A DNA stretch of 44,477 nt. Origin: a phage. Below the pieces are notes generated by a model. It saw nothing but the letters and a program-made list of their open reading frames with translations, made no database searches and was not told the DNA's origin. The stretch lies in the NCBI GenBank assembly GCA_029889005.1, contig GCA_029889005.1_4349.1; one strand, written 5' to 3'. Below, one piece after another: positions 7,810 to 41,074 of this stretch. Within the stretch, counting starts at the first letter, position 1. Every line of letters starts with the position of its first letter. Made by a program: the position numbers and the translations under genes.

Positions 7810-7838
7810 TTGCACACCCCAATATAATAGGGTACTAT
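7810..7838 (+). promoter_or_regulatory. Sigma70-like promoter, class A (TTGCAC-N17-TACTAT) with AATAG-N4-CTATT palindrome
   Basis: Hexamers with 17 bp spacer; ~35 bp motif recurs at 17957, 28540(-), 29928(-); downstream ATG 7879. Confidence 0.5.
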
Positions 7839-7878
7839 TCACTTACACCAACGTTATTAACTTAAATAAGGAATTAAA

Positions 7879-8205
7879 ATGCGTAAATTAATCATAGCCC
7901 TTGGTCTTATTTCTTTTTGCGCGGTAGGGTCCCAGTGTGAGCAAGTATATAGTGAAACCCCTTTAGTAACTTCCGGGACGCTTGATTCAGCCCCTCCGGC
8001 TGCCGTTAGTGCGTTTAAAACCGCTGCTATTCGCGAATGTAATGCTGCCGTGCGGGCTGGCAGGTCTGGCCTGGGTCTTGAATTGATGACATCCCTTGTT
8101 GTTGAGTCTGTAGATGTTAACAGCCCTACTTTCAGCAGCCTACTGTTAGCCACCCGCCTGCAAATGGTAATGACTGGGTGGGCAATAGGCGCAGAAAGTA
8201 AATAG
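7879..8205 (+). CDS. Small secreted protein (signal peptide)
   Basis: AGGA RBS; N-terminal MRKLIIALGLISFCAVGS hydrophobic signal-like segment; preferred over overlapping antisense ORF 7857..8153. Confidence 0.5.
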   Translation: MRKLIIALGLISFCAVGSQCEQVYSETPLVTSGTLDSAPPAAVSAFKTAAIRECNAAVRAGRSGLGLELMTSLVVESVDVNSPTFSSLLLATRLQMVMTGWAIGAESK

Positions 8206-8269
8206 TCGCCTTTATTTAAAGGAATGCACTGTGGTTAAATAGGACAAATCCTAAACACGAGGAATAAAC

Positions 8270-9400
8270 ATGGCCCGGAAGAAAATAACCGACGAACAGT
8301 TGCAGGAAGAATTGAACGCCGGTATGAAGAATGTAGATATCGCCCGTAAATACGGCATCTCAGACCGCGTAATTCGTATCCGTAAAGCGAAGCTGGCTAA
8401 GAAAGGCGTGGGCCACGGGCGCGACGTTAGCCACCTTGTGCCAGACGGCTACAAGATTAAAGGAACGTCGTCCCTGGTGGACGAGTTCGGCAACACTAAG
8501 TTGCAATGGGTTAAGACCGACGCTGATGCCGAACGTCAGGTTGAATTGATGAAAGCCGTAATAGAGGGCATGAAGTCAGAGATTACGCCCGTTGCGCCTG
8601 TTAAACCGGCACGAGCCAAACGTGACGATAAACTACTCAATCTTTACACGGTATCTGATTTCCATCTCGGTATGCTGGCATGGGCCGATGAGAGCGGCGA
8701 CGACTGGGACATGAAGATTGCAGAAGACCTGTTCTCTCGGTGGTTCGACGCGGCGTTTCAGAAAGCACCGGATGCAGGAACAGGAGTTATTAACCTGCTT
8801 GGGGACTTCGCACACTTCGATAGTCTTGATGCCGTTACCCCCGAGTCGCGCCATGTATTAGATGCGGATACTCGCTATCAGAAACTGGTACGTTACATGA
8901 TTCGTATGGTCCGCCGTGTTGTTGATATGGCGCTGGTTAAGCATCACACAGTAAAACTTTTAATCGTTCAAGGTAACCACGACCCTGTTGGCTCCGTATG
9001 GCTTGCCGAAATGTTCACGGTTTTATACTCAAACGACAGCCGAGTGATTGTTGATACGTCGCCGGATGTTTACAAGATGGTGCAACACGGCAAAACGACG
9101 CTGTTCTTCCATCACGGGCATAAAGCACGATTCGACGCTATCGAACCGGTTATGATTGCCAAGTTCCGTAAAGCGTTCGGCGAGAGTGTTTACAGCTACG
9201 CCCACGTAGGCCATCTGCACCACCAGAAGATTGTAGAAAGCCGTAACATGATTGTTGAGCAACACCGCACCTTAGCGGCTAAAGACGCCTACGCCTCTCG
9301 CGGCGGATGGATGTCGGGCCGCAGTGCAAATGTAATTACTTATAGCGCCGAATATGGCGAGGTCGCACGTTTAACTATTTCACCGGAGATGCTGGGATGA
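8270..9400 (+). CDS. Calcineurin-like metallophosphoesterase with N-terminal HTH-like region
   Basis: Motifs DFHLG, GDFAHFD, GNHD, HHGH, GHLHH typical of metallophosphoesterases. Confidence 0.7.
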   Translation: MARKKITDEQLQEELNAGMKNVDIARKYGISDRVIRIRKAKLAKKGVGHGRDVSHLVPDGYKIKGTSSLVDEFGNTKLQWVKTDADAERQVELMKAVIEGMKSEITPVAPVKPARAKRDDKLLNLYTVSDFHLGMLAWADESGDDWDMKIAEDLFSRWFDAAFQKAPDAGTGVINLLGDFAHFDSLDAVTPESRHVLDADTRYQKLVRYMIRMVRRVVDMALVKHHTVKLLIVQGNHDPVGSVWLAEMFTVLYSNDSRVIVDTSPDVYKMVQHGKTTLFFHHGHKARFDAIEPVMIAKFRKAFGESVYSYAHVGHLHHQKIVESRNMIVEQHRTLAAKDAYASRGGWMSGRSANVITYSAEYGEVARLTISPEMLG

Positions 9401-9885
9401 AAGATATTGTAATTTTCGATTTAGACGGGACATTGGCTGACGGTACCCATCGCTTACACCTGTTACCAAAAGATAACTACGGAGAAACGTGGGCGTGGAA
9501 GCCATTTAACATGGCCTGCAAAGATGACGCTCCGATATACGACAATATCCATTTGTGTAGCGTACTGTGGCATTCCGGACTTACTATAATTATCCTTACC
9601 GGGCGAAGTGATGACGCTGAGGAGGAGACTCGCGAATGGTTACGAGAGAATAACGTTAGGTTTGACACGCTAATCATGCGCAGCAAACACGACAACAGAA
9701 AAGACATCGTAATTAAAGAAGAGGTGTTGCGTGCTTTCGGACTGGAAAGAATCTTGTGTGCGTTCGACGACTCTCCAGCGGTAATAAAGCATTTCCGTGA
9801 CCTCGGCATAACCGCACACGCAGTTACCGAATACGACTGTAACGGGAACTCTACACACTTAAAACCACACGGGAGCGATAAATAA
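9397..9885 (+). CDS. HAD-superfamily phosphatase
   Basis: N-terminal FDLDGTL motif I, downstream LTGR and FDDSP motifs; start overlaps upstream stop. Confidence 0.65.
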   Translation: MKDIVIFDLDGTLADGTHRLHLLPKDNYGETWAWKPFNMACKDDAPIYDNIHLCSVLWHSGLTIIILTGRSDDAEEETREWLRENNVRFDTLIMRSKHDNRKDIVIKEEVLRAFGLERILCAFDDSPAVIKHFRDLGITAHAVTEYDCNGNSTHLKPHGSDK

Positions 9886-10439
9886 TGGCTAAGGTAATTA
9901 TTCTTAATGGCCCTGCGGGTTGCGGGAAAGACACGCTTGCTATGGCGCTGGTAGAAATGGGCTTTGCGAAAGGAACTACCAGTTTCAAGAATCCGATGTT
10001 CAATATTGCTATGGCTGCGTTAGGCCAGGATGCTTACCGCGAGTTTCTCGATGGCTACGACGACCGGGCGCGGAAAGAAAAGCCAGAGGGTTTCCTTAAC
10101 GGGTTGTCTCGGCGTCAGTTCATGATTGCCATTTCCGAGCAATTCATTAAACCGGTGTTCGGTGATGATTATTTCGGTAAGTATCTTGCCGGAAACTTGC
10201 CCGACGGCGACGAAGTTTTTGTGGTGTCTGATGGCGGGTTCGCCAGCGAAGTAGCCCCTATCGTTGCCGTGGGGCATGACGTGCGAATCGTCCGCCTCCA
10301 TCGTGACGGCTATACGTTCATCTGCGATAGCCGTGGCTATCTGTACGATGTTAGTGGTGTAAAAGATTACGACACCTACATCATACCGGGTGACGTTAAA
10401 TCGAACGTTATAGACATTGCTTTAAAATTAGGTTTGTAA
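9885..10439 (+). CDS. P-loop nucleotide/nucleoside monophosphate kinase-like protein
   Basis: Walker A GPAGCGKDT near N-terminus; start overlaps HAD gene stop. Confidence 0.65.
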   Translation: MAKVIILNGPAGCGKDTLAMALVEMGFAKGTTSFKNPMFNIAMAALGQDAYREFLDGYDDRARKEKPEGFLNGLSRRQFMIAISEQFIKPVFGDDYFGKYLAGNLPDGDEVFVVSDGGFASEVAPIVAVGHDVRIVRLHRDGYTFICDSRGYLYDVSGVKDYDTYIIPGDVKSNVIDIALKLGL

Positions 10440-17681: not shown

Positions 17682-17758
17682 GCTAGTCCTTATCATTTAA
17701 ACATAGAAACGGCGTAATCTAAGTAAACCTGTTACTTTTTACACAAGCAATAGAGTAT

Positions 17759-17890
17759 GGCCCTTCCGAACGCGTCAGCGTAACTACACTCAGGACTTAC
17801 GTCCCGCTCCGTTACCTGCCCGCGCCGCGGTCGCTTGTTCATACTTCACAAGCTCAGGTGGAGCTTAGCACATTTTCAGTGAAAAGTCAA
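17759..17890. repeat. Conserved ~130 bp non-coding element, copy 1
   Basis: Aligns base-for-base over long stretches with 30133..30265 (GGCCCTTCCGAA ... AACTACACTCA ... CCGCGGTCGCTTG ... TCACAAGCTCAG ... AGCTTAGCA ... AAAAGTCAA), with compensatory hairpin changes. Confidence 0.7.
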
Positions 17891-17956
17891 CTATTCGAAT
17901 AGTTTATTCCAATATTTACAATTTAGTGGAATAAATGGAATAGTCTGTATCTGTGC

Positions 17957-17985
17957 TTGCGCGCACCAATATAATAGGGTACTAT
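17957..17985 (+). promoter_or_regulatory. Sigma70-like promoter, class A (TTGCGC-N17-TACTAT)
   Basis: Same ~35 bp motif as 7810..7838; downstream ATG 18014; opposite strand also reads TTGATA-N17-TATATT (possible divergent promoter). Confidence 0.5.
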
Positions 17986-18013
17986 TCAGATATCAAAACG
18001 AGAGGAGAGTGAT

Positions 18014-18226
18014 ATGTGTGATATTAGAATGGCAAAAATGAAGAAAGCGAAAGATATCAAAGTTGGTGATAAATTGGTGAAGTTTGTTAACGGTAAAATG
18101 AAACGCGCAGAAGTTACATCCGTTGAGACTGTGGAAGGGGAGGTAGTAGGTGTAAACATCTGCATCCGCTACAGCGGTTCCGGTTTCGTTATAGTAAGAC
18201 CTTATAGAGAGCTAGAAGTATGTTAA
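18014..18226 (+). CDS. Small early protein, hypothetical
   Basis: 70 aa ORF with GAGAGGAGAG RBS after class A promoter, followed by terminator; weak similarity to 40883..41074 product. Confidence 0.5.
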   Translation: MCDIRMAKMKKAKDIKVGDKLVKFVNGKMKRAEVTSVETVEGEVVGVNICIRYSGSGFVIVRPYRELEVC

Positions 18227-18228
18227 AA

Positions 18229-18256
18229 CTAAGGCCCCATAATGGGGCCTTTTATC
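18229..18256 (+). terminator. Intrinsic terminator
   Basis: AAGGCCCC-ATAAT-GGGGCCTT hairpin then TTTATCATT. Confidence 0.7.
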
Positions 18257-18716
18257 ATTCTGGCTTAGTAACCTTCGCCGCTTTGCTTACCGCCTCTACT
18301 CCATCGGCATCAGTAACTTTAACGAAGTATTCGCCGACCGCATTAACCGTCAGAGACAGAGCCTCCTCAGGCGCATTCACCACTTCCTTACCGTCTTTGT
18401 ACCAGGTCAGAGAATACGGCGCTTTGCCTGCCTTAACCTCGACAGTGATGGTTGCGCTGCCATCTGTAAGTTCAGTGTCTTTCGGTTGCACAGAGAAATA
18501 CACGTCACCAGCGTCCGCCAGATACGGAATTTCATAAAGCATACCAGCGGCAGAGAGTGCGATACCTGTCTTGTCTGCGTACGGCATCTCGTCTACAGGT
18601 ATACCTAGTACACTTTCATCCTCAACGTAGGTTACGTTCTCACCGGAGCCAGACACCCGAGCGTACTGGACTACGCGACGTGACGGCACATCAGTTACTT
18701 TGAAAAAACCCATCAT
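18255..18716 (-). CDS. Structural protein with C-terminal Ig-like domain
   Basis: C-terminal APYSLTWYKDGKEV ... GEYFVKVTDADG similar to the Ig-like ORF at 14956..15177. Confidence 0.5.
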   Translation of the reverse strand: MMGFFKVTDVPSRRVVQYARVSGSGENVTYVEDESVLGIPVDEMPYADKTGIALSAAGMLYEIPYLADAGDVYFSVQPKDTELTDGSATITVEVKAGKAPYSLTWYKDGKEVVNAPEEALSLTVNAVGEYFVKVTDADGVEAVSKAAKVTKPE

Positions 18717-19901: not shown

Positions 19902-20555
19902 ATGAAACTGCAAACATTAGAGTTCCCTTATGGAGAAATCACTTTTGACCGTGAAAACTTTATTAACGTAAACGAGCTGGTTGACCAGATGAACCGTTGG
20001 CGTTTAGACAACGGCATGGGGGCCAGAGAGCTTCGCCAGGTCATGGCAACGGATGGCTTCAAGATTTTCAAGGAGGAATGCGAAAAACAACTCGGAATCG
20101 AGAATGCCATAAGGGCGACGAAAGGCCGAAACGGTCGCACCTTTGCATGTCTCCATCTGGCAGTATATATTGCTGAGCAATACAGCGCCTATTTCCATTT
20201 CCTCGTTATCGACCGCTTTATCACACAACGGCAGGTAGAACTACGAAACATTGGCGCGGTGAGCTTTGTCGAGCTTAACGCTGCCGTTAGTCGAATGATC
20301 GAGCGCACGGAGGGAAGAATTGGCCACAGTGGACACTTCATACAGGTGGCTAAAGCGGTAAAGGAATCCGTAGATATCCGCGACGTAACGGGTTTCGATA
20401 CATGGGACTCTCAGGATGCGAAGACCAATCAGTTGCGAAGTGACATCCAGAAAGCTCTGGTGACGCTTCTTGACATGGAGGCCGTTAATGCATGGGGTGA
20501 ACTGAAAGAGGCGATACCTCGGGTTGTGCGTAAATGTGCGGCTAATATACGTTAA
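19902..20555 (+). CDS. KilA-N domain DNA-binding protein
   Basis: KGRNGRTFACLHLAVYIAEQYSAYFHFLV matches KilA-N/APSES core pattern; antisense to flanking structural genes. Confidence 0.6.
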   Translation: MKLQTLEFPYGEITFDRENFINVNELVDQMNRWRLDNGMGARELRQVMATDGFKIFKEECEKQLGIENAIRATKGRNGRTFACLHLAVYIAEQYSAYFHFLVIDRFITQRQVELRNIGAVSFVELNAAVSRMIERTEGRIGHSGHFIQVAKAVKESVDIRDVTGFDTWDSQDAKTNQLRSDIQKALVTLLDMEAVNAWGELKEAIPRVVRKCAANIR

Positions 20556-25879: not shown

Positions 25880-25908
25880 AATATAATAGGGTCGAGGATA
25901 ATAGTCAA
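25880..25908 (-). promoter_or_regulatory. Sigma70-like promoter (TTGACT-N17-TATATT)
   Basis: Minus-strand hexamers with 17 bp spacer ~35 nt upstream of 25845 start. Confidence 0.5.
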
Positions 25909-25929
25909 CTAGTCATCACAGAAAATAGA

Positions 25930-25996: not shown

Positions 25997-26160
25997 GATT
26001 TAAGTATCGTCGGATTAGTCTTATGTGTCAACAGAGATTCTCCGGCACGCGTTACCGCACTTTGGCTCGACCTTGTTACAGGTCCGCGAGGGTGATGATA
26101 CCCGGAATTCCCTCAATGTTGTTTAATCTTCTGTTGCCGTTAGTCTATCAAACTACTGGC

Positions 26161-28509: not shown

Positions 28510-28539
28510 CTTCTGTCTCTCCTCTCGTCTGTGTAAATG

Positions 28540-28568
28540 AATAGTAGCCTATTCTATCTTAGTGTGCA
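28540..28568 (-). promoter_or_regulatory. Sigma70-like promoter, class A (TTGCAC-N17-TACTAT)
   Basis: Same motif as 7810..7838 in minus orientation, ~30 nt upstream of 28509 start. Confidence 0.5.
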
Positions 28569-29893: not shown

Positions 29894-29927
29894 TTCTAAA
29901 TTCCTTATGTCTCGTTCCGATAAGTGA

Positions 29928-29956
29928 ATAGTATCCTATTATGTTGGGGTGTGCAA
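29928..29956 (-). promoter_or_regulatory. Sigma70-like promoter, class A (TTGCAC-N17-TACTAT)
   Basis: Motif CTTGCACACCCCAACATAATAGGATACTATTCAC in minus orientation ~35 nt upstream of 29893 start. Confidence 0.5.
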
Positions 29957-30132
29957 GATAATAGTTACGTTGCCGTTGTGATTCTTTTGTTTCTTAAAAG
30001 AGTACGCAACGCAGTGGGTGGGCTAACGCCCACCCCAGCGGAGTGAAGTACTCTCTACCTTGCTTACGGCAACTATAGAAACTTTTAATTATCAGTGACT
30101 TGAGTATTTAGGCGGGATTAACAATAGACTTT

Positions 30133-30265
30133 GGCCCTTCCGAAAGCGCCAGCGGAACTACACTCAAGTGCCTAATGGCACGCGTTGCGTTCCCTGCCGC
30201 TCCGCGGTCGCTTGCGATATCTCACAAGCTCAGTGAAGCTTAGCATATTTTTAAGTAAAAGTCAA
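30133..30265. repeat. Conserved ~130 bp non-coding element, copy 2
   Basis: Homologous to 17759..17890; contains GTGCC-TAAT-GGCAC and AAGCT-CAGTG-AAGCTT hairpins. Confidence 0.7.
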
Positions 30266-30312
30266 TACCAGTAGCATCTTTTGTATTTTAGTAACTTTGC
30301 GTGGTGTTTTGG

Positions 30313-30341
30313 TTGCTTTTACATTCACGCTATCCTATACT
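30313..30341 (+). promoter_or_regulatory. Sigma70-like promoter (TTGCTT-N17-TATACT)
   Basis: Hexamers with 17 bp spacer ~30 nt upstream of 30373 ATG. Confidence 0.45.
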
Positions 30342-30372: not shown

Positions 30373-30555
30373 ATGCAGCATTACATGACACAGAATGAAG
30401 TGGCTGAACGTATCGGGGTGACACGTCAAACCATTAATAACTGGTTGCGCAGCGGTAAATTCCCTGATTGCTGTATTAAGGTTATGGGTCGCCGTTTACC
30501 AGGAACATTTGACCGTAATAAAGTTGAAGCGTGGATTAAGGAGAACGTGAAATGA
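30373..30555 (+). CDS. Small HTH DNA-binding protein (AlpA/Xis-like)
   Basis: AGGAGA RBS; TQNEVAERIGVTRQTINNWLRSGKFP helix-turn-helix; start at internal ATG of track ORF 30301..30555. Confidence 0.5.
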   Translation: MQHYMTQNEVAERIGVTRQTINNWLRSGKFPDCCIKVMGRRLPGTFDRNKVEAWIKENVK

Positions 30556-33521: not shown

Positions 33522-33547
33522 AAAGAAAGGGGCTTTAAGCCCCTTCA
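33521..33547. terminator. Hairpin terminator between convergent genes
   Basis: AGGGGC-TTTAA-GCCCCT hairpin with A/T-rich flank. Confidence 0.5.
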
Positions 33548-33750
33548 CCTAACGCCAGCCACTTGGCGTCTACTTCCAGAACTTCCGCCAGTTTGAACAG
33601 CGTTGCCGGGCGGACGTCCTGAGTTACTCCAAGTGCCAGTTGGTTAATCGCGCCCTGGGAAACGCCGGTCAGGGCCGCCAAACGGCGCTGGGAGATGCCG
33701 AGTTCTTTACGGCGTTGTTCTACACGGATACCTAGTTCAGATGGTTGCAT
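33535..33750 (-). CDS. XRE-family HTH transcriptional regulator (Cro/CI-like)
   Basis: LGISQRRLAALTGVSQGAINQLALG helix-turn-helix; AAGGAG RBS; divergent from the downstream plus-strand genes. Confidence 0.7.
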   Translation of the reverse strand: MQPSELGIRVEQRRKELGISQRRLAALTGVSQGAINQLALGVTQDVRPATLFKLAEVLEVDAKWLALGEGA

Positions 33751-33814
33751 GTCAATTACTCCTTAGTCAGTTGATATGTGAATAGTACCATATTAATTAT
33801 TTTAGAAAAGCCCA

Positions 33815-33843
33815 TTGACACGTGAATAGTTCGCTATTATAGT
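33815..33843 (+). promoter_or_regulatory. Sigma70-like promoter, class B (TTGACA-N17-TATAGT) with GAATAG-N4-CTAT palindrome in spacer
   Basis: Consensus -35, 17 bp spacer containing TGAATAGTTCGCTAT; second palindrome copy ~33777..33801. Confidence 0.55.
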
Positions 33844-33871: not shown

Positions 33872-34099
33872 ATGAACACAATCACTGGGGCCATAGCTAA
33901 AGGTTTTCGAGCAATTTTCGGAGAATCGCAGGAAGTGTGCACAAAACATAAATTTGTACTTTCTTGCGTAGTCGGGGACGAGTTTGATGGGTTCGATAAA
34001 CTTGTTGTCTGCGACCATTGCGGGCAAGAAGCTATTCAACACCCAAACGGTAAATTTGAATTAATAGACGATAGCCTTACAGAAGGCGACGGCGAGTAA
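33872..34099 (+). CDS. Hypothetical protein with Cys pairs
   Basis: 75 aa; C ... C and CDHC. Confidence 0.45.
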   Translation: MNTITGAIAKGFRAIFGESQEVCTKHKFVLSCVVGDEFDGFDKLVVCDHCGQEAIQHPNGKFELIDDSLTEGDGE

Positions 34100-34123
34100 C
34101 CCAAATAAACAGGAGAATAAATA

Positions 34124-34615
34124 ATGTTAGAGAAATTCTTAGTATTACTGGAACGTTTCGTAGTTGCGCACGAACTGATTGCCGCGAACAGTGCGAAACA
34201 AGTTGTTCAGGTTGCCACGCCGCTGGAAGTAGAGACGGTATCGTACACCAAAGAAGCGGTAGCTGAGTGCGCTGAAGAAGCAACAAAAGAAATCCCGGTT
34301 GAAGGTGAAGACGTAGTTGACACTAAACCGGCGGAGGAAGAGAAGCCAAAACGCAAGCCGCGTAAAGCTAAAGTAGAGGAACCTGCGCCAGAACCGGAAG
34401 AAGAGGTCGATTACAAGTCTCTGCGTGACCAGATTCAGGCCATCGACGATGCAATTAATGAAGGTCCTAGCGAGGCCGCGTGCGATGATTCTGATGAACT
34501 GCTGGAAGAGTTCACAGGTAAGAAGATGAAGATTGCCGCGATTAAAGACGAAGACCTGGTTGAGTACCTGGAACGCCTGACAGCAATCAAGAACAAGTAT
34601 TTCGAAGAAGAATAA
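34124..34615 (+). CDS. Highly acidic protein, hypothetical
   Basis: 163 aa with long Glu/Asp-rich region and KPKRKPRKAK basic patch. Confidence 0.45.
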   Translation: MLEKFLVLLERFVVAHELIAANSAKQVVQVATPLEVETVSYTKEAVAECAEEATKEIPVEGEDVVDTKPAEEEKPKRKPRKAKVEEPAPEPEEEVDYKSLRDQIQAIDDAINEGPSEAACDDSDELLEEFTGKKMKIAAIKDEDLVEYLERLTAIKNKYFEEE

Positions 34616-34658
34616 CTATCTCGCGGCCTTCGGGCCGCTTTAACGGAGGGGCGGAAAT

Positions 34659-34931
34659 ATGATTTACCAACTCTACCGCGCCGTAGACAGGCGGGATAAC
34701 ACAGAGGCGTTGTGGCTGTTGCGTGCGCCGTCCGGTGCGCACCAGATGGAAGAGATGGCGTACTTAGGCAAAGTACCGCGTCCTAAAGATATAGGTCGTC
34801 ACGTGTCGCGGATTAAACGCACGACATTCGCCAAGCCCGACTTTTATGTCTTCGAGTCGATGTATGGATGGGCCTTACATTGCGACCACAAGACACGGCA
34901 TTTAATTGACCAGTGGGAGAACAGAGCATGA
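34659..34931 (+). CDS. Hypothetical protein
   Basis: 90 aa ORF; stop overlaps next start. Confidence 0.45.
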   Translation: MIYQLYRAVDRRDNTEALWLLRAPSGAHQMEEMAYLGKVPRPKDIGRHVSRIKRTTFAKPDFYVFESMYGWALHCDHKTRHLIDQWENRA

Positions 34932-36169
34932 TTCTAAAAGAACGAGGCGGCAATAATGATGTACACGCCTTACTGTCACCGTCAGGCGCTAAAAAGTGGC
35001 TGTCATGCGCTGCGTCGCTGGCGTGTGAAAAAGATATCCCTAACACGTCGGGTAAAGCCGCGGTATTAGGAACCGCCATGCACACCATAGCTGAGGTCCA
35101 TCTCAACGCCTATATACGCGGCACTGCGTTGCCGTTGGAGCGTGAAGTCGGCGCTTACGTACTGGATGAAGGCAAAGGTCAGATTAAGGCGCTAATCAGC
35201 CCGATGAAAGGCGCGGTACTGATTACGGCGGACATGATTGAGCAGGTGCGCAAGTACACCGACTACTGCAAAGCGATTATAGACGTAGCGACTTACGCCA
35301 AGCTGGAAATGCGTGTCAATCTTACTGAGGTATTGCATCCGGGGTATGAAGGCGTTGAGACGTTCGGAACCGCTGACCTCGTTGCTGTCCAGGAACTGGC
35401 AAACACCGACGAGCACATGCTCATTATCGGCGACCTGAAAACCGGGCGGCATCGCGTCGAAGCGAAAGAAAACAAGCAGCTTATGCTTTACGCTCTCGGT
35501 GTTTATCGTCGACTCAAGAGACGTTATAACATAACAACCGTTCGTCTGGTCATCTTCCAGCCTTACGCTGGGGGTGCGACAGAGTGGGGCATCTCGGTTG
35601 AAGGACTGGAACTGTTCGCTAAGTTCGCACAGAAACGCGCGCTGTTAGCGCTTGATGCGTATTTCCGTGGCAAGAAGAACCTGAAAGCGTCGGACTTCAA
35701 GCCATCGGTAGATGGTTGTCAGTGGTGCCGGTTCTCTGAACAATGCGCTGCGCGTACAAAGACGGTTAATTCTGTACTGGCGGAAGAACTGGAAGACGAC
35801 TTTGTGCTGGAACTGACGCCGGAGCAACTCGTAGCTGAGTATGAGAAGTTGCCGCTGTTGCGCCAGCACATCGACAAGGTTGAGAAAGCTATGGCGGCCG
35901 CGTTGCATTCAGGTAAGAAAGTTCCTGGTTACAAGTTGGTTGAGGGCCGCCCGGGCAATCGTGCGTGGAAAGACGCAGAGAAAGTGGCTGGCAAGTATGG
36001 CATAGCGCTAATGAAGCAAGTGCTCATGACGCCAACCGAAGCGGCTAAAGTCATACCGGAAGATGAACTGAAAGACTTCATTACACGTAAGCCAGGCGCA
36101 CCATGTGTCGCAACGGCAGATGACAAACGTCCTGAGTGGAATCAGGTTACAGAGGAGGATTTAGAATGA
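34913..36169 (+). CDS. PD-(D/E)XK Cas4/RecB-like exonuclease
   Basis: GTADLVAVQE ... IIGDLKTG nuclease motifs, N-terminal Cys plus C-terminal CQWCRFSEQC; likely start ATG ~34928 with GGGAGA RBS. Confidence 0.75.
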   Translation: MGEQSMILKERGGNNDVHALLSPSGAKKWLSCAASLACEKDIPNTSGKAAVLGTAMHTIAEVHLNAYIRGTALPLEREVGAYVLDEGKGQIKALISPMKGAVLITADMIEQVRKYTDYCKAIIDVATYAKLEMRVNLTEVLHPGYEGVETFGTADLVAVQELANTDEHMLIIGDLKTGRHRVEAKENKQLMLYALGVYRRLKRRYNITTVRLVIFQPYAGGATEWGISVEGLELFAKFAQKRALLALDAYFRGKKNLKASDFKPSVDGCQWCRFSEQCAARTKTVNSVLAEELEDDFVLELTPEQLVAEYEKLPLLRQHIDKVEKAMAAALHSGKKVPGYKLVEGRPGNRAWKDAEKVAGKYGIALMKQVLMTPTEAAKVIPEDELKDFITRKPGAPCVATADDKRPEWNQVTEEDLE

Positions 36170-36369
36170 TTCAAGTAAATGAAATGCCGACTGATAAAGA
36201 TTTTTTGATGGTATGGCGCTGGGATGGGTATCTACACTCGGAATCGTTCACGTTCTTGAACGGTACCATGATGCGATACGACCATGTGGAGGATGAATTC
36301 GAACCCGTTGATATGAATGATTTCGAGATCATAATCCCTATTGCAAAATTTTATTTGACACATGAATAG
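36136..36369 (+). CDS. Hypothetical protein
   Basis: Likely start ATG ~36166 with AGAGGAGG RBS overlapping nuclease stop. Confidence 0.4.
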   Translation: MESGYRGGFRMIQVNEMPTDKDFLMVWRWDGYLHSESFTFLNGTMMRYDHVEDEFEPVDMNDFEIIIPIAKFYLTHE

Positions 36370-36383
36370 TTAGCTATTATAGT
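36355..36383 (+). promoter_or_regulatory. Sigma70-like promoter, class B (TTGACA-N17-TATAGT)
   Basis: Spacer CATGAATAGTTAGCTAT contains the GAATAG-N4-CTAT palindrome; ~70 nt upstream of 36452 ATG. Confidence 0.55.
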
Positions 36384-36451
36384 TCTAATCACTGGCCGGG
36401 CAGCTTCCCGGAGTAAACTTTGAAATATAAACTGAAAAGCGAGAAATCACG

Positions 36452-37137: not shown

Positions 37138-40100
37138 ATGAGTTACCTGTTCTTAGACTTTGAAACATTCTCAGAAGCCGATTTGAAGAAAGTCGGTTCT
37201 TACGCTTACGCCGAACACCCGTCAACCGAAGTGCTTATCTGTACATATGCTTTTGACGACGAACCTGTGCGGGTATGGGATTGCACCGACGGCAGCGACA
37301 TGCCGGGGGATTTACACCGCGCACTGCGCCGCCTTGTTAAGCCCAACAGCCGCATCAAGATGGTGTGGCACAACGGTGGACTTTTCGATCGCCTAATCAT
37401 GAAACACTGCTGGGACTTTGATATTCCGGTAAGTAACACCATTGATACTATGATTTGGGCGTTCCGTCACGCGCTGCCGGGTTCTCTTGATGCGCTGTGC
37501 GAAGTGCTGGGCGTGTCTGCAGACAACGCGAAAGATAAACGCGGAAAGGCTCTGATTAAGCGTTTCTCTAAACCGACGCCGAAGAACTACAAAATCCGCC
37601 GCTACACCGCAGAAACTCACCCTGACGAGTGGGCGATGTTCATCAGGTACGCCGTGAGCGACATCACTGCGATGCGTGAAGTCTTCCATAAGCTGCCGCG
37701 TTGGGGTAACTCCGAGTTCGAAGACCGTGTACTGGAACTTGACCAGTTAATCAACGACCGCGGATTTAAGGTTGACGTCGCACTGGCGGAAGCCGCGATT
37801 GAAGCCGTAGAGAAGCACAAGGCACAGTTACAGGAAGAAGCTCAACGTAAATACGGCGGCTCGCTTACCGGTAAAGACTTCCTTCCGATTCTGCGTGAAC
37901 TTGCGCCCGCGCACCGCATACACAATGCACAGAAGTCGACGCTTAACGACCTGTTGGCAGATGATGATTTACCGGACGACGCCCGGATGATTATCGAAAT
38001 GCGCCTCGGGGCCGCGTCAACAGCGTCCACGAAATATAACCCGCTGCTGTTAGGCCGCTCGTCGGACGACCGACGCCGCGGTTGTATCCAGTACGGCGGA
38101 GCCAAGCGTACATTACGATTTGCCGGTAAAGGCTTTCAGCCGCAGAACCTCGCGCGGGGGTACTATCACGATGATGAACTGGATAAAGGTATTTCAGCGT
38201 TACTTAAGGGCCGCGCGCATCGCCGTTTCGATGTCGCTAAGCTAACGGCATCGACGGTGCGTAGCTGCATTATCCCGGAAGCCGGAAAAAAGTTTGTCGT
38301 CGCCGATTACTCTAACGTTGAAGGTCGGGGGCTTGCGTGGCTGGCAGGCGAAGAAACCGCGCTCGATACATTCCGTGCGGGATTGGATATTTACTGCGTA
38401 ACAGCAGGTAAGATGTTCGGCATGGACCCTGATTACATCAAGAAAGAACGTAAAGACTTACGCCAGATTGGTAAAGCCTGTCTTCACCGCCATACCCAAG
38501 TTTTGACCGATGGCGGATTTAAGGATATTATGGCGGTCGCATCAACAGATAAAGTATGGAGTGGTGAAAAATGGGTGAATACAAAAGGCGCGCACCTTAT
38601 GGGGTGGAAACCGGTGATAAATGTGGACGGAGTGCTAATGACCGAAGACCACAAAATATTGACGCATTCCTGGAAGCAGGCAAAGCAACTCGTTTCAAAC
38701 AAATATATGATGGACCGCGCCCTGGAGATAGGTATGGACGCCTGGTTATCCTGCGCGAGTTACCAAAACGACAAGGTCATAGACAACTACTTGCTCAATG
38801 TGATTGCGGAGAGATTCCGGGGCGCGTCGGGTACGACAATGTTAGAAGGGGTAAAACCACTCAATGCAACCGCTGCGCACTTGAAGCAACAAAAAAATAT
38901 CGTAAACAGTATTTCTGCTACGAAGACGCAATGCCGGACGACGGGCACAGAGCGCGATTGCTCAACCGGTTATCTGCGGCAATATCGCGAACAACAAAAC
39001 CTAACGACAAAGGCTATAAAAACTATGGTGCCAGAGGGATTACCGTATGCGAAAAGTGGAAGGCCGATAGAAGGGCGTTTCTTCTCTATGTTCAAACTCT
39101 GGAAGGCTGGGATGACCCAAAACTCGAAATGGACAGAATCGACACAGACGGTAACTACGAACCTGGAAACATTCGGTTTGTCAGCCGTTCTGAAAACTGC
39201 CGTAACAGACGGCAAATACCTGAGCTTCAACGAAAGTATGATGCAGCCGTTGCCCGCATTGCTGAGCTTGAACGGGAAATTAACCTACTGCGAGCCGGTT
39301 TACGACCTGATTGATGTGGAAGACGGAAACCGTTTTCTTATAGCCTCCGACTCTGGCTTTCTTGTGGCGCATAACTGCGAACTTGGACTCGGCTACGCCG
39401 GGGGTGTCGGTGCTTTCGTTCAGTTCGCCAAGAACCTCGGCCTTGACCTTGTAGATATGGCAAAAACAATGGATGGGACTTTCCCTGACCACATCTGGGC
39501 CGCTACCGCGCGCGGGTACGAGTGGGCGCGTATTCAGGAAGCCAAGCGACCACCGCGTCCGGGTGAAAAGGATGACCGACCATCATATATTCTTGATAAG
39601 AAAGTCTGGCGTACATGCGACGCAATTAAGCGTATGTGGCGGGAGTCCCACCCGGAAACAGTAGCTTTCTGGCGTGATATTGAAGACGCAGCTATGGCAG
39701 CAATCCGTAATCCGGGGAAAGAGTTCACCGCTGGCCCTCGCGGGGTTAAGTTTTCTCGCAACGTAGAAACAGACAACAACGGCAACAAAGTCGCTGGTTG
39801 GTGGTTGCGCATGACGTTGCCGTCAGGTCGCGTTATGTCATACCCGGGCGTCGGGTTGAGCGTGTCAAAAGAGACAGACGAAGACGGAAAAGTTTCTACT
39901 AACGTGCGCATCAAGTATCAGGGTGAAAATCAGTTAACCAGGCAGTGGGGCTTCCAGTACACCTACTCCGGTAAACTGGTGGAAAACTGCACTCAGGCAC
40001 TGTGCCGTGACTTGCTGGCTAATGCGCTACTTAACGTTGAAGCAAACGGCTACCCGATTGTACTTCACGTACACGATGAGATTATCTGCGAGACACCAGA

Positions 40101-40215
40101 TTTACCAGAATACAATGTTGCAGAGCTTGAGCGATTGATGTGCGAATTACCAGAATGGGCGGAGGGGTTCCCTCTTGTAGCGGAAGGTCAGGAGTTAAAA
40201 CGCTATGCTAAGTAA
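37138..40215 (+). CDS. Family A (Pol I-like) DNA polymerase with 3'-5' exonuclease domain, interrupted by an intein
   Basis: Exo motif FLDFETFSE; motif A VVADYSNVEGRGLAW; motif B split as RQIGKA | intein | CELGLGYAGG; motif C VLHVHDEIICE. Confidence 0.9.
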   Translation: MSYLFLDFETFSEADLKKVGSYAYAEHPSTEVLICTYAFDDEPVRVWDCTDGSDMPGDLHRALRRLVKPNSRIKMVWHNGGLFDRLIMKHCWDFDIPVSNTIDTMIWAFRHALPGSLDALCEVLGVSADNAKDKRGKALIKRFSKPTPKNYKIRRYTAETHPDEWAMFIRYAVSDITAMREVFHKLPRWGNSEFEDRVLELDQLINDRGFKVDVALAEAAIEAVEKHKAQLQEEAQRKYGGSLTGKDFLPILRELAPAHRIHNAQKSTLNDLLADDDLPDDARMIIEMRLGAASTASTKYNPLLLGRSSDDRRRGCIQYGGAKRTLRFAGKGFQPQNLARGYYHDDELDKGISALLKGRAHRRFDVAKLTASTVRSCIIPEAGKKFVVADYSNVEGRGLAWLAGEETALDTFRAGLDIYCVTAGKMFGMDPDYIKKERKDLRQIGKACLHRHTQVLTDGGFKDIMAVASTDKVWSGEKWVNTKGAHLMGWKPVINVDGVLMTEDHKILTHSWKQAKQLVSNKYMMDRALEIGMDAWLSCASYQNDKVIDNYLLNVIAERFRGASGTTMLEGVKPLNATAAHLKQQKNIVNSISATKTQCRTTGTERDCSTGYLRQYREQQNLTTKAIKTMVPEGLPYAKSGRPIEGRFFSMFKLWKAGMTQNSKWTESTQTVTTNLETFGLSAVLKTAVTDGKYLSFNESMMQPLPALLSLNGKLTYCEPVYDLIDVEDGNRFLIASDSGFLVAHNCELGLGYAGGVGAFVQFAKNLGLDLVDMAKTMDGTFPDHIWAATARGYEWARIQEAKRPPRPGEKDDRPSYILDKKVWRTCDAIKRMWRESHPETVAFWRDIEDAAMAAIRNPGKEFTAGPRGVKFSRNVETDNNGNKVAGWWLRMTLPSGRVMSYPGVGLSVSKETDEDGKVSTNVRIKYQGENQLTRQWGFQYTYSGKLVENCTQALCRDLLANALLNVEANGYPIVLHVHDEIICETPDLPEYNVAELERLMCELPEWAEGFPLVAEGQELKRYAK
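38479..39375 (+). mobile_element. Intein (299 aa) inserted in polymerase motif B
   Basis: N-terminal CLHRHTQVLTDGG (block A) and GVLMTEDHKILT (block B); C-terminal VYDLIDVEDGNRFLIASDSGFLVAHN then +1 Cys. Confidence 0.8.
38571..39314 (+). CDS. HNH homing endonuclease encoded inside the intein in a different reading frame
   Basis: 247 aa ORF out of frame with the polymerase; ATG directly follows an in-frame TGA with GGTGA 4 nt upstream; motifs RYGRLVILREL ... CDCG ... CNRC, YKNYGARGITVCEKW, LEMDRIDTDGNYEPGNIRFVSRSEN. Confidence 0.75.
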   Translation: MGEYKRRAPYGVETGDKCGRSANDRRPQNIDAFLEAGKATRFKQIYDGPRPGDRYGRLVILRELPKRQGHRQLLAQCDCGEIPGRVGYDNVRRGKTTQCNRCALEATKKYRKQYFCYEDAMPDDGHRARLLNRLSAAISRTTKPNDKGYKNYGARGITVCEKWKADRRAFLLYVQTLEGWDDPKLEMDRIDTDGNYEPGNIRFVSRSENCRNRRQIPELQRKYDAAVARIAELEREINLLRAGLRPD

Positions 40216-40567: not shown

Positions 40568-40852
40568 ATGACCCCGGAAGGCAAGATTCAGAAATACGCA
40601 AAAGAGCAATTCGAGGCCATTGGCGGCCTCGTTCGTAAACTTTCGTACGAGGGGCGCTCCGGCGCCCCTGACCTGCTGGTAATTCTCCCCGGCGGCATCG
40701 TCTGGTTCGTCGAGGTTAAGAAAGACGAAAACACGAAGCCAGACCCGCACCAGTTACGTGAGCATGAGCGGATGCGTAAACGCGGTGCAAATGTTTTTGT
40801 CGTTGGTTCGTTTAAACAGGTTGACGACCTAATAGCAAACTATTATAGTTAG
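40568..40852 (+). CDS. VRR-NUC domain nuclease
   Basis: GAPDLLVIL ... WFVEVK PD-(D/E)XK-type motif in a 94 aa protein. Confidence 0.7.
   Translation: MTPEGKIQKYAKEQFEAIGGLVRKLSYEGRSGAPDLLVILPGGIVWFVEVKKDENTKPDPHQLREHERMRKRGANVFVVGSFKQVDDLIANYYS
40821..40849 (+). promoter_or_regulatory. Sigma70-like promoter, class B (TTGACG-N17-TATAGT)
   Basis: Lies in 3' end of VRR-NUC gene; predicted leader ACACCAAC ... TAAGGAATT ... ATG matches leader of 7879 gene. Confidence 0.5.
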
Positions 40853-40882
40853 CCATACACCAACAATATAAGGAATTGAGAA

Positions 40883-41074
40883 ATGAAACACGAATATGAC
40901 CGCAAGCCAGCACGTGACATCGTACCTGGCGACATGATTTTCAACGTTAAGACCCGCCAGCCTGTTGCCGTTGATACGGTGTTCGTCGAGTCGAACGGTA
41001 AACTGGTTATCGAAGATGTAACTGGTAACGTTACGGCGTTCGGGCGTAAAGAGCTGGTGCTGGTGGCAAAATGA
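40883..41074 (+). CDS. Small protein, hypothetical
   Basis: 63 aa; AAGGAATT RBS; weak similarity to 18014..18226 product. Confidence 0.45.
   Translation: MKHEYDRKPARDIVPGDMIFNVKTRQPVAVDTVFVESNGKLVIEDVTGNVTAFGRKELVLVAK

Follow-up and report, generated by a model that had tools for sequence, protein, structure and literature searches.

A palindrome shared by σ70-like promoters of a Kagunavirus-type phage is a candidate operator

Introduction

What role can be assigned to a short palindrome that recurs inside promoters dispersed over an entire phage genome? This question is raised by a 44,477-nucleotide stretch of phage DNA (contig GCA_029889005.1_4349.1 of GenBank assembly GCA_029889005.1), hereafter the window, in which an initial annotation, made from the sequence alone, had listed seven promoter-like sites of two classes that embed an AATAG/CTATT inverted repeat. 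All seven are present where they were listed, and the promoter-operator arrangement proposed for them is well supported in silico: they are σ70-type promoters with an embedded operator-like palindrome, AATAG-N4-CTATT. We consider it probable that this palindrome is the operator of a phage repressor occluding RNA polymerase at the seven promoters and at two weakened copies and, jointly with this, that the window represents a virulent Kagunavirus-type siphophage dependent on the host σ70 RNA polymerase.

Megablast places the window in the genus Kagunavirus (Guernseyvirinae), with 86-98% identity to E. coli siphophages that include vB_EcoS-22664BS2, SHAK7858, K1H and Golestan. Its structural, lysis, small-gene and replication modules are ordered as in annotated relatives. 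Among the E. coli and Salmonella phages put forward for therapy and biocontrol, Guernseyvirinae (Kagunavirus, Jerseyvirus) rank with those most often isolated.

Results

The palindrome lies within σ70-like promoters

The 44.5-kb window contains seven exact copies of AATAG-N4-CTATT, against 0.05 expected from shuffled sequences, and ten sites with at most one mismatch, against 1.2 expected; two of the three additional one-mismatch sites are also inside promoters. A longer 21-mer, AATATAATAGGGTACTATTCA, is found exactly at 7821 and 17968, with three mismatches at 28538 (-) and with two at 29925 (-). A fifth match lies at 33823 on the opposite strand, giving five matches within three mismatches where none is expected.

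Each exact palindrome sits within a σ70-like promoter with a 17-bp spacer. Four promoters form class 1, TTGCAC/TTGCGC-N17-TACTAT, at 7810 (+), 17957 (+), 28569 (-) and 29956 (-), and three form class 2, TTGACA/TTGACG-N17-TATAGT, at 33815, 36355 and 40821, all on the plus strand. The two classes thus stand as first described, with corrections to individual sequences: the -35 element at 17957 is TTGCGC, and the promoter at 40821 reads TTGACG and TAATAG. Two degenerate sites, at 33781-33794 (P8) and 25900-25913 (P9), had been missed. The nine promoters are as follows.

P1, 7810-7845, plus strand: class 1; -35 TTGCAC 7810-7815, palindrome 7826-7839, -10 TACTAT 7833-7838, predicted +1 A at 7845. 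Drives 7879-10439 (a 108-aa protein, a metallophosphoesterase/exonuclease, a PNK phosphatase and a kinase-like protein).
P2, 17957-17992, plus strand: class 1; -35 TTGCGC 17957-17962, palindrome 17973-17986, -10 TACTAT 17980-17985. Drives 18014-18537 (two small genes in the head region).
P3, 28534-28569, minus strand: class 1; -35 TTGCAC 28569-28564, palindrome 28540-28553, -10 TACTAT 28546-28541. Apparently transcribes from 28509 on, through the holin and endolysin genes, to a terminator at 26191-26167.
P4, 29921-29956, minus strand: class 1; -35 TTGCAC 29956-29951, palindrome 29927-29940, -10 TACTAT 29933-29928. Drives small genes from 29893 to about 28728, including one for a DUF551 protein.
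P5, 33815-33850, plus strand: class 2; -35 TTGACA 33815-33820, palindrome 33825-33838 (in the spacer), -10 TATAGT 33838-33843. Drives 33872-36169 (small proteins and a PD-(D/E)XK exonuclease).
P6, 36355-36390, plus strand: class 2; -35 TTGACA 36355-36360, palindrome 36365-36378, -10 TATAGT 36378-36383. Followed by a 62-nt leader with a conserved hairpin, then the DUF2815 and DNA polymerase genes.
P7, 40821-40856, plus strand: class 2; -35 TTGACG 40821-40826, palindrome 40831-40844, -10 TATAGT 40844-40849. Drives genes for a 63-aa protein, a DNA helicase and a Toprim primase.
P8, 33775-33810, minus strand: degenerate class-1-type promoter with a weak -35; site 33781-33794, AATAT-GGTA-CTATT, one mismatch. 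Precedes the gene of an XRE protein, back-to-back with P5, the operator centres being 44 bp apart.
P9, 25880-25913, minus strand: TTGACT-N17-TATATT; one-mismatch site 25900-25913, ACTAG-TTGA-CTATT, over the -35. Upstream of small genes and then terminase (packaging).

By cargo, P1 thus serves the exonuclease/PNK island, P4 small early genes and P5 to P7 the replication operons. The 17-bp spacer is present in nine of nine promoters, and an A, the predicted +1, is found 7 nt 3' of every -10, which puts the starts of P1 to P7 at 7845, 17992, 28534, 29921, 33850, 36390 and 40856. Predicted leaders measure 22-34 nt, apart from the 62 nt at P6, whose promoter at 36355 lies 69 bp upstream of its ATG. 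In a generic σ70 scan the class 2 promoters are the three best matches of their region (10-11 of 12 hexamer positions); the P9 hexamers score 10/12, and those of class 1, at 7/12, were missed by the scan. A TATAAT within class 1 was considered as the true -10 and rejected, there being no usable -35 at 16-18 bp. Both classes share an asymmetric core, TAT-AATAG-N4-CTATT-CA, which in class 2 is found on the opposite strand; the orientation of the element relative to transcription is therefore flipped between the classes.

The motif itself has been catalogued before. For Golestan (VB_EcoS-Golestan), seven 'conserved promoters' with the same sequences were reported by PHIRE (PMC7203180, Table S4), and for fBC-Eco01 (PMC9825357) the PHIRE consensus tgAATAGTa-ccTATTat-T was attributed to a phage RNA polymerase. 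Both lists agree with the window in motif, in orthologous positions and in seven sites per genome, including a degenerate one before the cro-like gene. The two papers give 20-mers only, with no σ70 hexamers, dyad symmetry, operator reading or candidate regulator, and they are the only publications we found that bear on the motif, our literature search having returned no transcript mapping or regulator study for Guernseyvirinae. Well supported in silico is the view that these are host σ70 promoters with a common operator, which corrects the attribution to a phage polymerase.

That attribution has in its favor that PHIRE lists the motif as 'phage-specific promoters' in both fBC-Eco01 and Golestan. 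Against it, canonical -35/-10 hexamers spaced by 17 bp enclose every site, and the fBC-Eco01 paper names no polymerase gene. Furthermore, no RNA polymerase gene is found among the large open reading frames (ORFs) of the window or annotated in Golestan, Jersey or other relatives: the 1025-aa ORF encodes a DNA polymerase of family A (DNA_pol_A), and the counterparts of the other ORFs above 400 aa are annotated structural or replication genes of relatives. At the level of sequence we regard the phage polymerase reading as refuted and give it next to no credence.

The arms are conserved, and the palindrome moves within the promoter

To examine conservation, we compared 13 Guernseyvirinae genomes, seven of which were used for ortholog alignments, and located orthologous promoter regions by flanking homology regardless of whether the palindrome was intact. 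Exact sites are frequent in Kagunavirus-type genomes (window 7, Golestan 8, LF7074P3 6, BUCT823 8, LM02P1 8) and in Jerseyvirus (Jersey 4, Kenya-K14 5). The remaining six genomes are motif-poor: SE1, GRNsp27, SaI_NFG_5579 and FSL SP-031 have no exact site, Otaku has one, and phiEap-2 has one together with three AATAG-N4-GTATT hybrids.

In related genomes the motif is found at orthologous positions, and its arms are conserved above both centre and flanks. Across the seven aligned genomes, variable columns make up 5 of 90 (6%) in the arms, 13 of 36 (36%) in the centre and 140 of 630 (22%) in the flanks (Fisher p = 6.5e-5 and 4e-5). At P7 both arms are intact in 7/7 genomes around five different centre sequences. 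In Jersey, P1 has changed to TTGCAT-N17-TATTAT, and its palindrome is perfect and has moved by 3 bp; the Jersey counterpart of P9 carries its mismatch in the opposite arm (AATAG-TTGA-CTAGT). The hexamers of orthologous P5 and P6 are retained with broken arms in SE1, GRNsp27 and SP-031. Because SE1-like phages keep the hexamers without the palindrome, the palindrome is an add-on that is dispensable for the promoter. An unbiased search for spaced palindromes in these phages returned only terminator stems.

Relative to the predicted +1, the palindrome is centred at -12.5 in class 1 (over the -10), at -18.5 in class 2 (in the spacer), at -15.5 in the remodelled P1 of Jersey and at about -33.5 in the P9 variant (over the -35). 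It therefore takes three or four positions with respect to the -10, all of which overlap the polymerase footprint or core promoter. The element has 5-bp arms, a free 4-bp centre and half-site centres 9 bp apart; this spacing of about one helical turn would suit two helix-turn-helix (HTH) reading heads on one face of the DNA. Conserved arms, a free centre, a variable position and dispensability are together the signature of a polymerase-occluding operator. Since all sites are upstream of the predicted +1, the palindrome would remain untranscribed, making a role at the RNA level unlikely. From the enrichment, the promoter architecture, the purifying selection on the arms, the variable position and the phyletic distribution, we infer that a protein binds the palindrome and that the sign of its regulation is negative. 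One regulator for all sites, as first suggested, is the simplest reading of the shared palindrome.

We also considered that there is no dedicated binder, and that promoter cassettes have spread by duplication or recombination with an incidental AT-rich palindrome whose overlapping -10-like hexamers aid σ70 function or melting. P1, P2 and P4 are near-identical across about 35 bp and are obvious paralogues, so that their flank similarity partly reflects common ancestry; the class 1 right arm overlaps the -10, and leaders are modular and common to several promoters. The Serratia phage Otaku provides a related observation: three class-1-type promoters, TTGC..-N17-TAC[TG]AT at 26019, 22310 and 38488, have a common non-palindromic spacer, AGTAGAATAC[GT]ATT. 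Such a spacer, shared without a dyad, indicates that conserved spacers are possible without symmetry, and the promoter families look ancestral to the subfamily. Incidental symmetry does not, however, account for a left arm that has no known σ70 role and is as invariant as the right one, for a centre that is free to vary, or for a palindrome that stays intact although its distance from the hexamers shifts by 3 and 6 bp. The SE1-like promoters that keep hexamers without the palindrome argue in the same direction, as do the promoter-less copies in Golestan, BUCT823 and LM02P1 described below. We consider the cassette explanation unlikely.

Those promoter-less copies are exact palindromes about 160 bp upstream of the P3 operator (Golestan 38971, BUCT823 778, LM02P1 36765). 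They are not present in the window and could be auxiliary operators. A pattern scan of viral contigs for TATAATAGNNNNCTATTMA returned at least 120 stretches, mostly single chance matches, and was uninformative.

A repressor would give coordinate negative control

We hypothesize that a small phage-encoded HTH protein binds the operator as a pair, and that the bound protein would sterically exclude RNA polymerase. The result would be coordinate negative control, as shut-off or feedback, of nearly all non-structural operons, namely those for replication, for repair and nucleotide metabolism, for small early genes and the operon running into the lysis genes. The operon that encodes a 60-aa HTH_17 protein together with the helicase-primase would escape this control through its own palindrome-free promoter:

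HTH_17-operon promoter, 30313-30341, plus strand: σ70-like, TTGCTT-N17-TATACT, palindrome-free.

Its equivalent in Jersey is TTGATT-N17-TATACT. The initial annotation had called the controlled promoters early. P3, however, apparently runs through holin and endolysin, and the promoters at 7810 and 17957 drive islands in the structural region. With lysis and structural-region promoters in the family, and weak copies at the XRE and packaging genes, 'early' is too narrow.

Several points weigh against a repressor operator. The paralogy of P1, P2 and P4 noted above is one of them, and the apparent reach of the regulon into the lysis genes is a poor fit to simple early shut-off. Our literature searches yielded no mapped transcription starts, expression timing or binding measurements for phages of the Guernseyvirinae. 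Finally, the class 1 hexamers are weak (7/12), which makes dependence on an activator possible.

If the palindrome were an activator site, HTH_17, made first, would switch on the other operons as a delayed-early activator, perhaps by reshaping the spacer in the manner of MerR regulators, whose dyads are located between the -35 and the -10. In addition to the weak TTGCAC/TACTAT hexamers, the predicted fold of HTH_17 is MerR-like, its own promoter lacks the site, and close homologues are automatically named 'pyocin activator PrtN' in some databases. The spacers, however, are of the optimal 17 bp and not the 19-20 bp needed for MerR-type activation, and class 2 promoters are near consensus (10-11/12) and should require no help. 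A site at -12.5 covers the -10, which is contacted by σ70, and three positions on different helical faces are at odds with the stereospecific contact to polymerase that an activator would make; the changing face argues against any activator in need of a fixed contact. Activation is, in our judgment, improbable, and a repressor operator remains the reading that we carry forward.

HTH_17 and XRE proteins are the candidate binders

Two small HTH proteins encoded in the window could recognize the operator.

HTH_17, 30373-30555, plus strand: MerR/excisionase-like winged helix, 60 aa, first gene of the helicase-primase operon.
XRE/HTH_3, 33535-33750, minus strand: Cro-like, 71 aa, rival candidate binder.

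We tentatively favor HTH_17, placing it slightly ahead of XRE at a level of belief that falls short of even, with the remainder going to something else or to no binder. Its true start is the ATG at 30373, and it belongs to Pfam HTH_17 (PF12728; 33.6 bits against a cut-off of 27). The gene is present in all seven palindrome-bearing genomes, with four to eight sites each, and a profile search did not detect it in the six genomes with zero or one exact site. The recognition helix is nearly identical between Kagunavirus and Jersey, and the gene stands first behind a promoter that is itself conserved and has no palindrome. An AlphaFold2 model (pLDDT 82) has as its best folds BldC, HiNmlR, RacA and Xis, all weak (E at least 0.01), and is closest to BldC and MerR N-terminal domains (Foldseek E about 0.01, 22% identity). 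A sequence search of the PDB gave weak generic HTH matches only, and some databases automatically label close homologues 'pyocin activator PrtN'. A small MerR-like repressor has a precedent in a lytic phage, Gp36 of D29 (PMC12266134).

The case for HTH_17 is weakened on several counts. In LM02P1 the helix reads VSPMTLNRW instead of VTRQTINNW, yet this genome has eight exact sites, and phiEap-2 and Otaku, which lack HTH_17, keep one to four motif-like sites in orthologous promoters. Known minimal MerR-like proteins bind mostly direct repeats (PMC5859096, PMC12266134). Furthermore, HTH_17 and the replication module segregate together, which reduces the association to about one evolutionary split; a protein search for distant homologues gave close relatives only and therefore no independent lineage in which the association could be tested.

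The second candidate, the XRE protein, would bind the same operator and act by the same occlusion, autoregulating at P8 and controlling the divergent P5 and the other promoters. Its membership in Pfam HTH_3 (PF01381) is clear (49.7 bits against a cut-off of 23), and its gene and P5 point away from each other across a joint control region that contains two sites, 44 bp apart. Operators of the 434 Cro type are 14 bp long with conserved outer arms and a free centre, and 434 Cro itself has 71 aa; the operator geometry here matches that type. XRE is encoded in 13 of 13 genomes, including phiEap-2 and Otaku, which have motif-like sites without HTH_17, and in LM02P1 the XRE helix is kept while that of HTH_17 has diverged. 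Next to the right arm, 24 of 32 Kagunavirus sites have a C and 9 of 9 Jersey-type sites an A, so that this flanking base changes together with the XRE allele. Against this candidate, XRE proteins of Kagunavirus and Jersey are only 48% identical, with helices SQGAINQ and SQSLITH, yet the arms are identical; moreover, the Jersey helix is nearest to TQSAISH, the helix of the palindrome-free SE1-like phages. We regard XRE as a possible but doubtful binder.

Both proteins, a Cro-like XRE and a MerR/Xis-like HTH_17, might instead, as unrelated binders, read the 14-bp operator at nearly all non-structural promoters. This would explain why the arms are invariant despite the divergence of the XRE helix in Jersey and of the HTH_17 helix in LM02P1. 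If true, it would amount to a Cro/CI-style switch in a strictly virulent phage without a lysogeny module. We assign such a double reading a low likelihood.

A DNA-binding protein of the Enterobacteriaceae host, exploited by the phage, seems very unlikely to us. The persistence of motif-like sites in phages without HTH_17, and the fact that neither phage HTH protein has an invariant reading head in all palindrome-bearing genomes, would be explained by a host factor; SE1-like phages, which share Salmonella hosts with Jersey, are nonetheless without sites. No E. coli regulator known to us has this consensus, and the OxyR motif ATAG-N7-CTAT differs from the palindrome in spacing.

Other candidate regulators were set aside. 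The cleanest phyletic fit is that of the 63-aa protein (40883-41074, phrog_4879), the first gene of the helicase operon, with 94-97% identity in all palindrome-bearing genomes and absence elsewhere; it is confidently modelled (pLDDT 90) as a small SH3-like barrel similar to eIF5A/EF-P domain I, and this predicted fold gives no sign of sequence-specific DNA binding. Two candidates named in the initial annotation found no confirmation: none of the ORFs scanned contains an AP2 domain, and the supposed KilA-N protein (19902-20555, plus strand) scores below the Pfam threshold (PF04383, 20.4 bits against 23.8) and is assigned by PHROGs to phrog_6095, 'amidase'. The ORF, of 217 aa, runs antisense to the head-morphogenesis and portal genes on either side of it; its identity to Jersey_05 is 89%, and Golestan lacks it.

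Comparison with known regulatory systems

The proposed operator is of a familiar kind, and phage repressors with dispersed operators are well known, so that conceptually the finding is unsurprising. One likeness is to lambdoid and 434 Cro operators, 14-17 bp dyads that overlap PR/PL and are bound by a dimer of an HTH protein of about 70 aa. Shared features are the short dyad, conserved outer arms, variable centre, overlap with the core promoter and a 71-aa XRE protein encoded beside a divergent promoter pair with two sites. In contrast, single operators are scattered here over seven to nine promoters, unlike the clustered tripartite OL/OR. A CI partner, an integrase and a lysogeny module are all lacking, and XRE, the candidate binder, has a helix that is not conserved in Jersey.

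The resemblance to D29 Gp36 (PMC12266134) is that of a small repressor tuning early and late genes in a lytic phage. Gp36 and BldC (PMC5859096), however, form head-to-tail oligomers on direct repeats, which for Gp36 are GC-rich, unlike the AT-rich, promoter-internal inverted repeat described here, and their sequence similarity to HTH_17 is negligible. Stoperators of Cluster A mycobacteriophages (L5 gp71-type; PMC9283540) likewise pair one repressor with many dispersed short sites. They are asymmetric, orientation-dependent and monomer-bound, and largely block elongation in transcribed regions of temperate phages; the window, in contrast, comes from a virulent phage, and its sites, which have a symmetric core and are all embedded in promoters upstream of the predicted +1, are therefore not stoperators.

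Taken as a regulon, the family offers about nine promoters and two candidate regulators for testing, and for engineering it may supply compact, probably repressible promoter modules for modified phages.

Leaders, repeats and other elements

The leader shared by the genes at 7879 and 40883 was confirmed.

Leader, 7845-7875, plus strand: short CA-rich sequence ACACCAAC...TAAGGAATT, beginning at the predicted +1 of P1; second copy at 40857-40877.

These are its only two copies. A second leader, AACGAGAGGRG, precedes three other genes (17997, 28519 (-) and 33856). The hairpin in the P6 leader, CACTGGCCGGGCAGcttCCCGGAG (36390-36420), is kept even in SE1 and GRNsp27, whose DUF2815 protein is only 46% identical.

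Two same-orientation copies (17745-17900 and 30118-30270) of a non-coding element about 150 nt long share about 80% identity, and each adjoins a class 1 promoter. Across the palindrome-bearing genomes the element has nine copies; from the six motif-poor genomes it is missing. The two copies differ chiefly at compensatory-looking hairpins, with weak net covariation support. The element has no match in Rfam, and a scan of the whole window returned zero matches at the gathering threshold. At the 3' end of the first copy (17882-17902), CTATTCGAATAG has the two half-sites of the operator in exchanged order, 2 bp apart, and further GAATAG copies are near it at 17897 and 17938. On the minus strand of P2, TTGATA-N17-TATATT (17996-17968) scores 10/12 with the palindrome in the class 2 position, and P2 may thus be bidirectional, firing also towards this repeat.

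At 1025 aa, the product of the DNA polymerase ORF (37138-40215) is longer than that of Golestan (750 aa); relatives can be aligned to only about 46% of it, and 38488-39897 has no Pfam match. This suggests that the extra length is an in-frame insertion, such as an intein or homing element. Lastly, a possible small RNA gene lies at 26031-25935 (minus strand), in the interval that separates endolysin from P9: some 40-60 nt after a strong σ70-like promoter (TTGACA-N17-GATACT) comes a strong intrinsic terminator, CCCGGC...GCCGGG with a T run.

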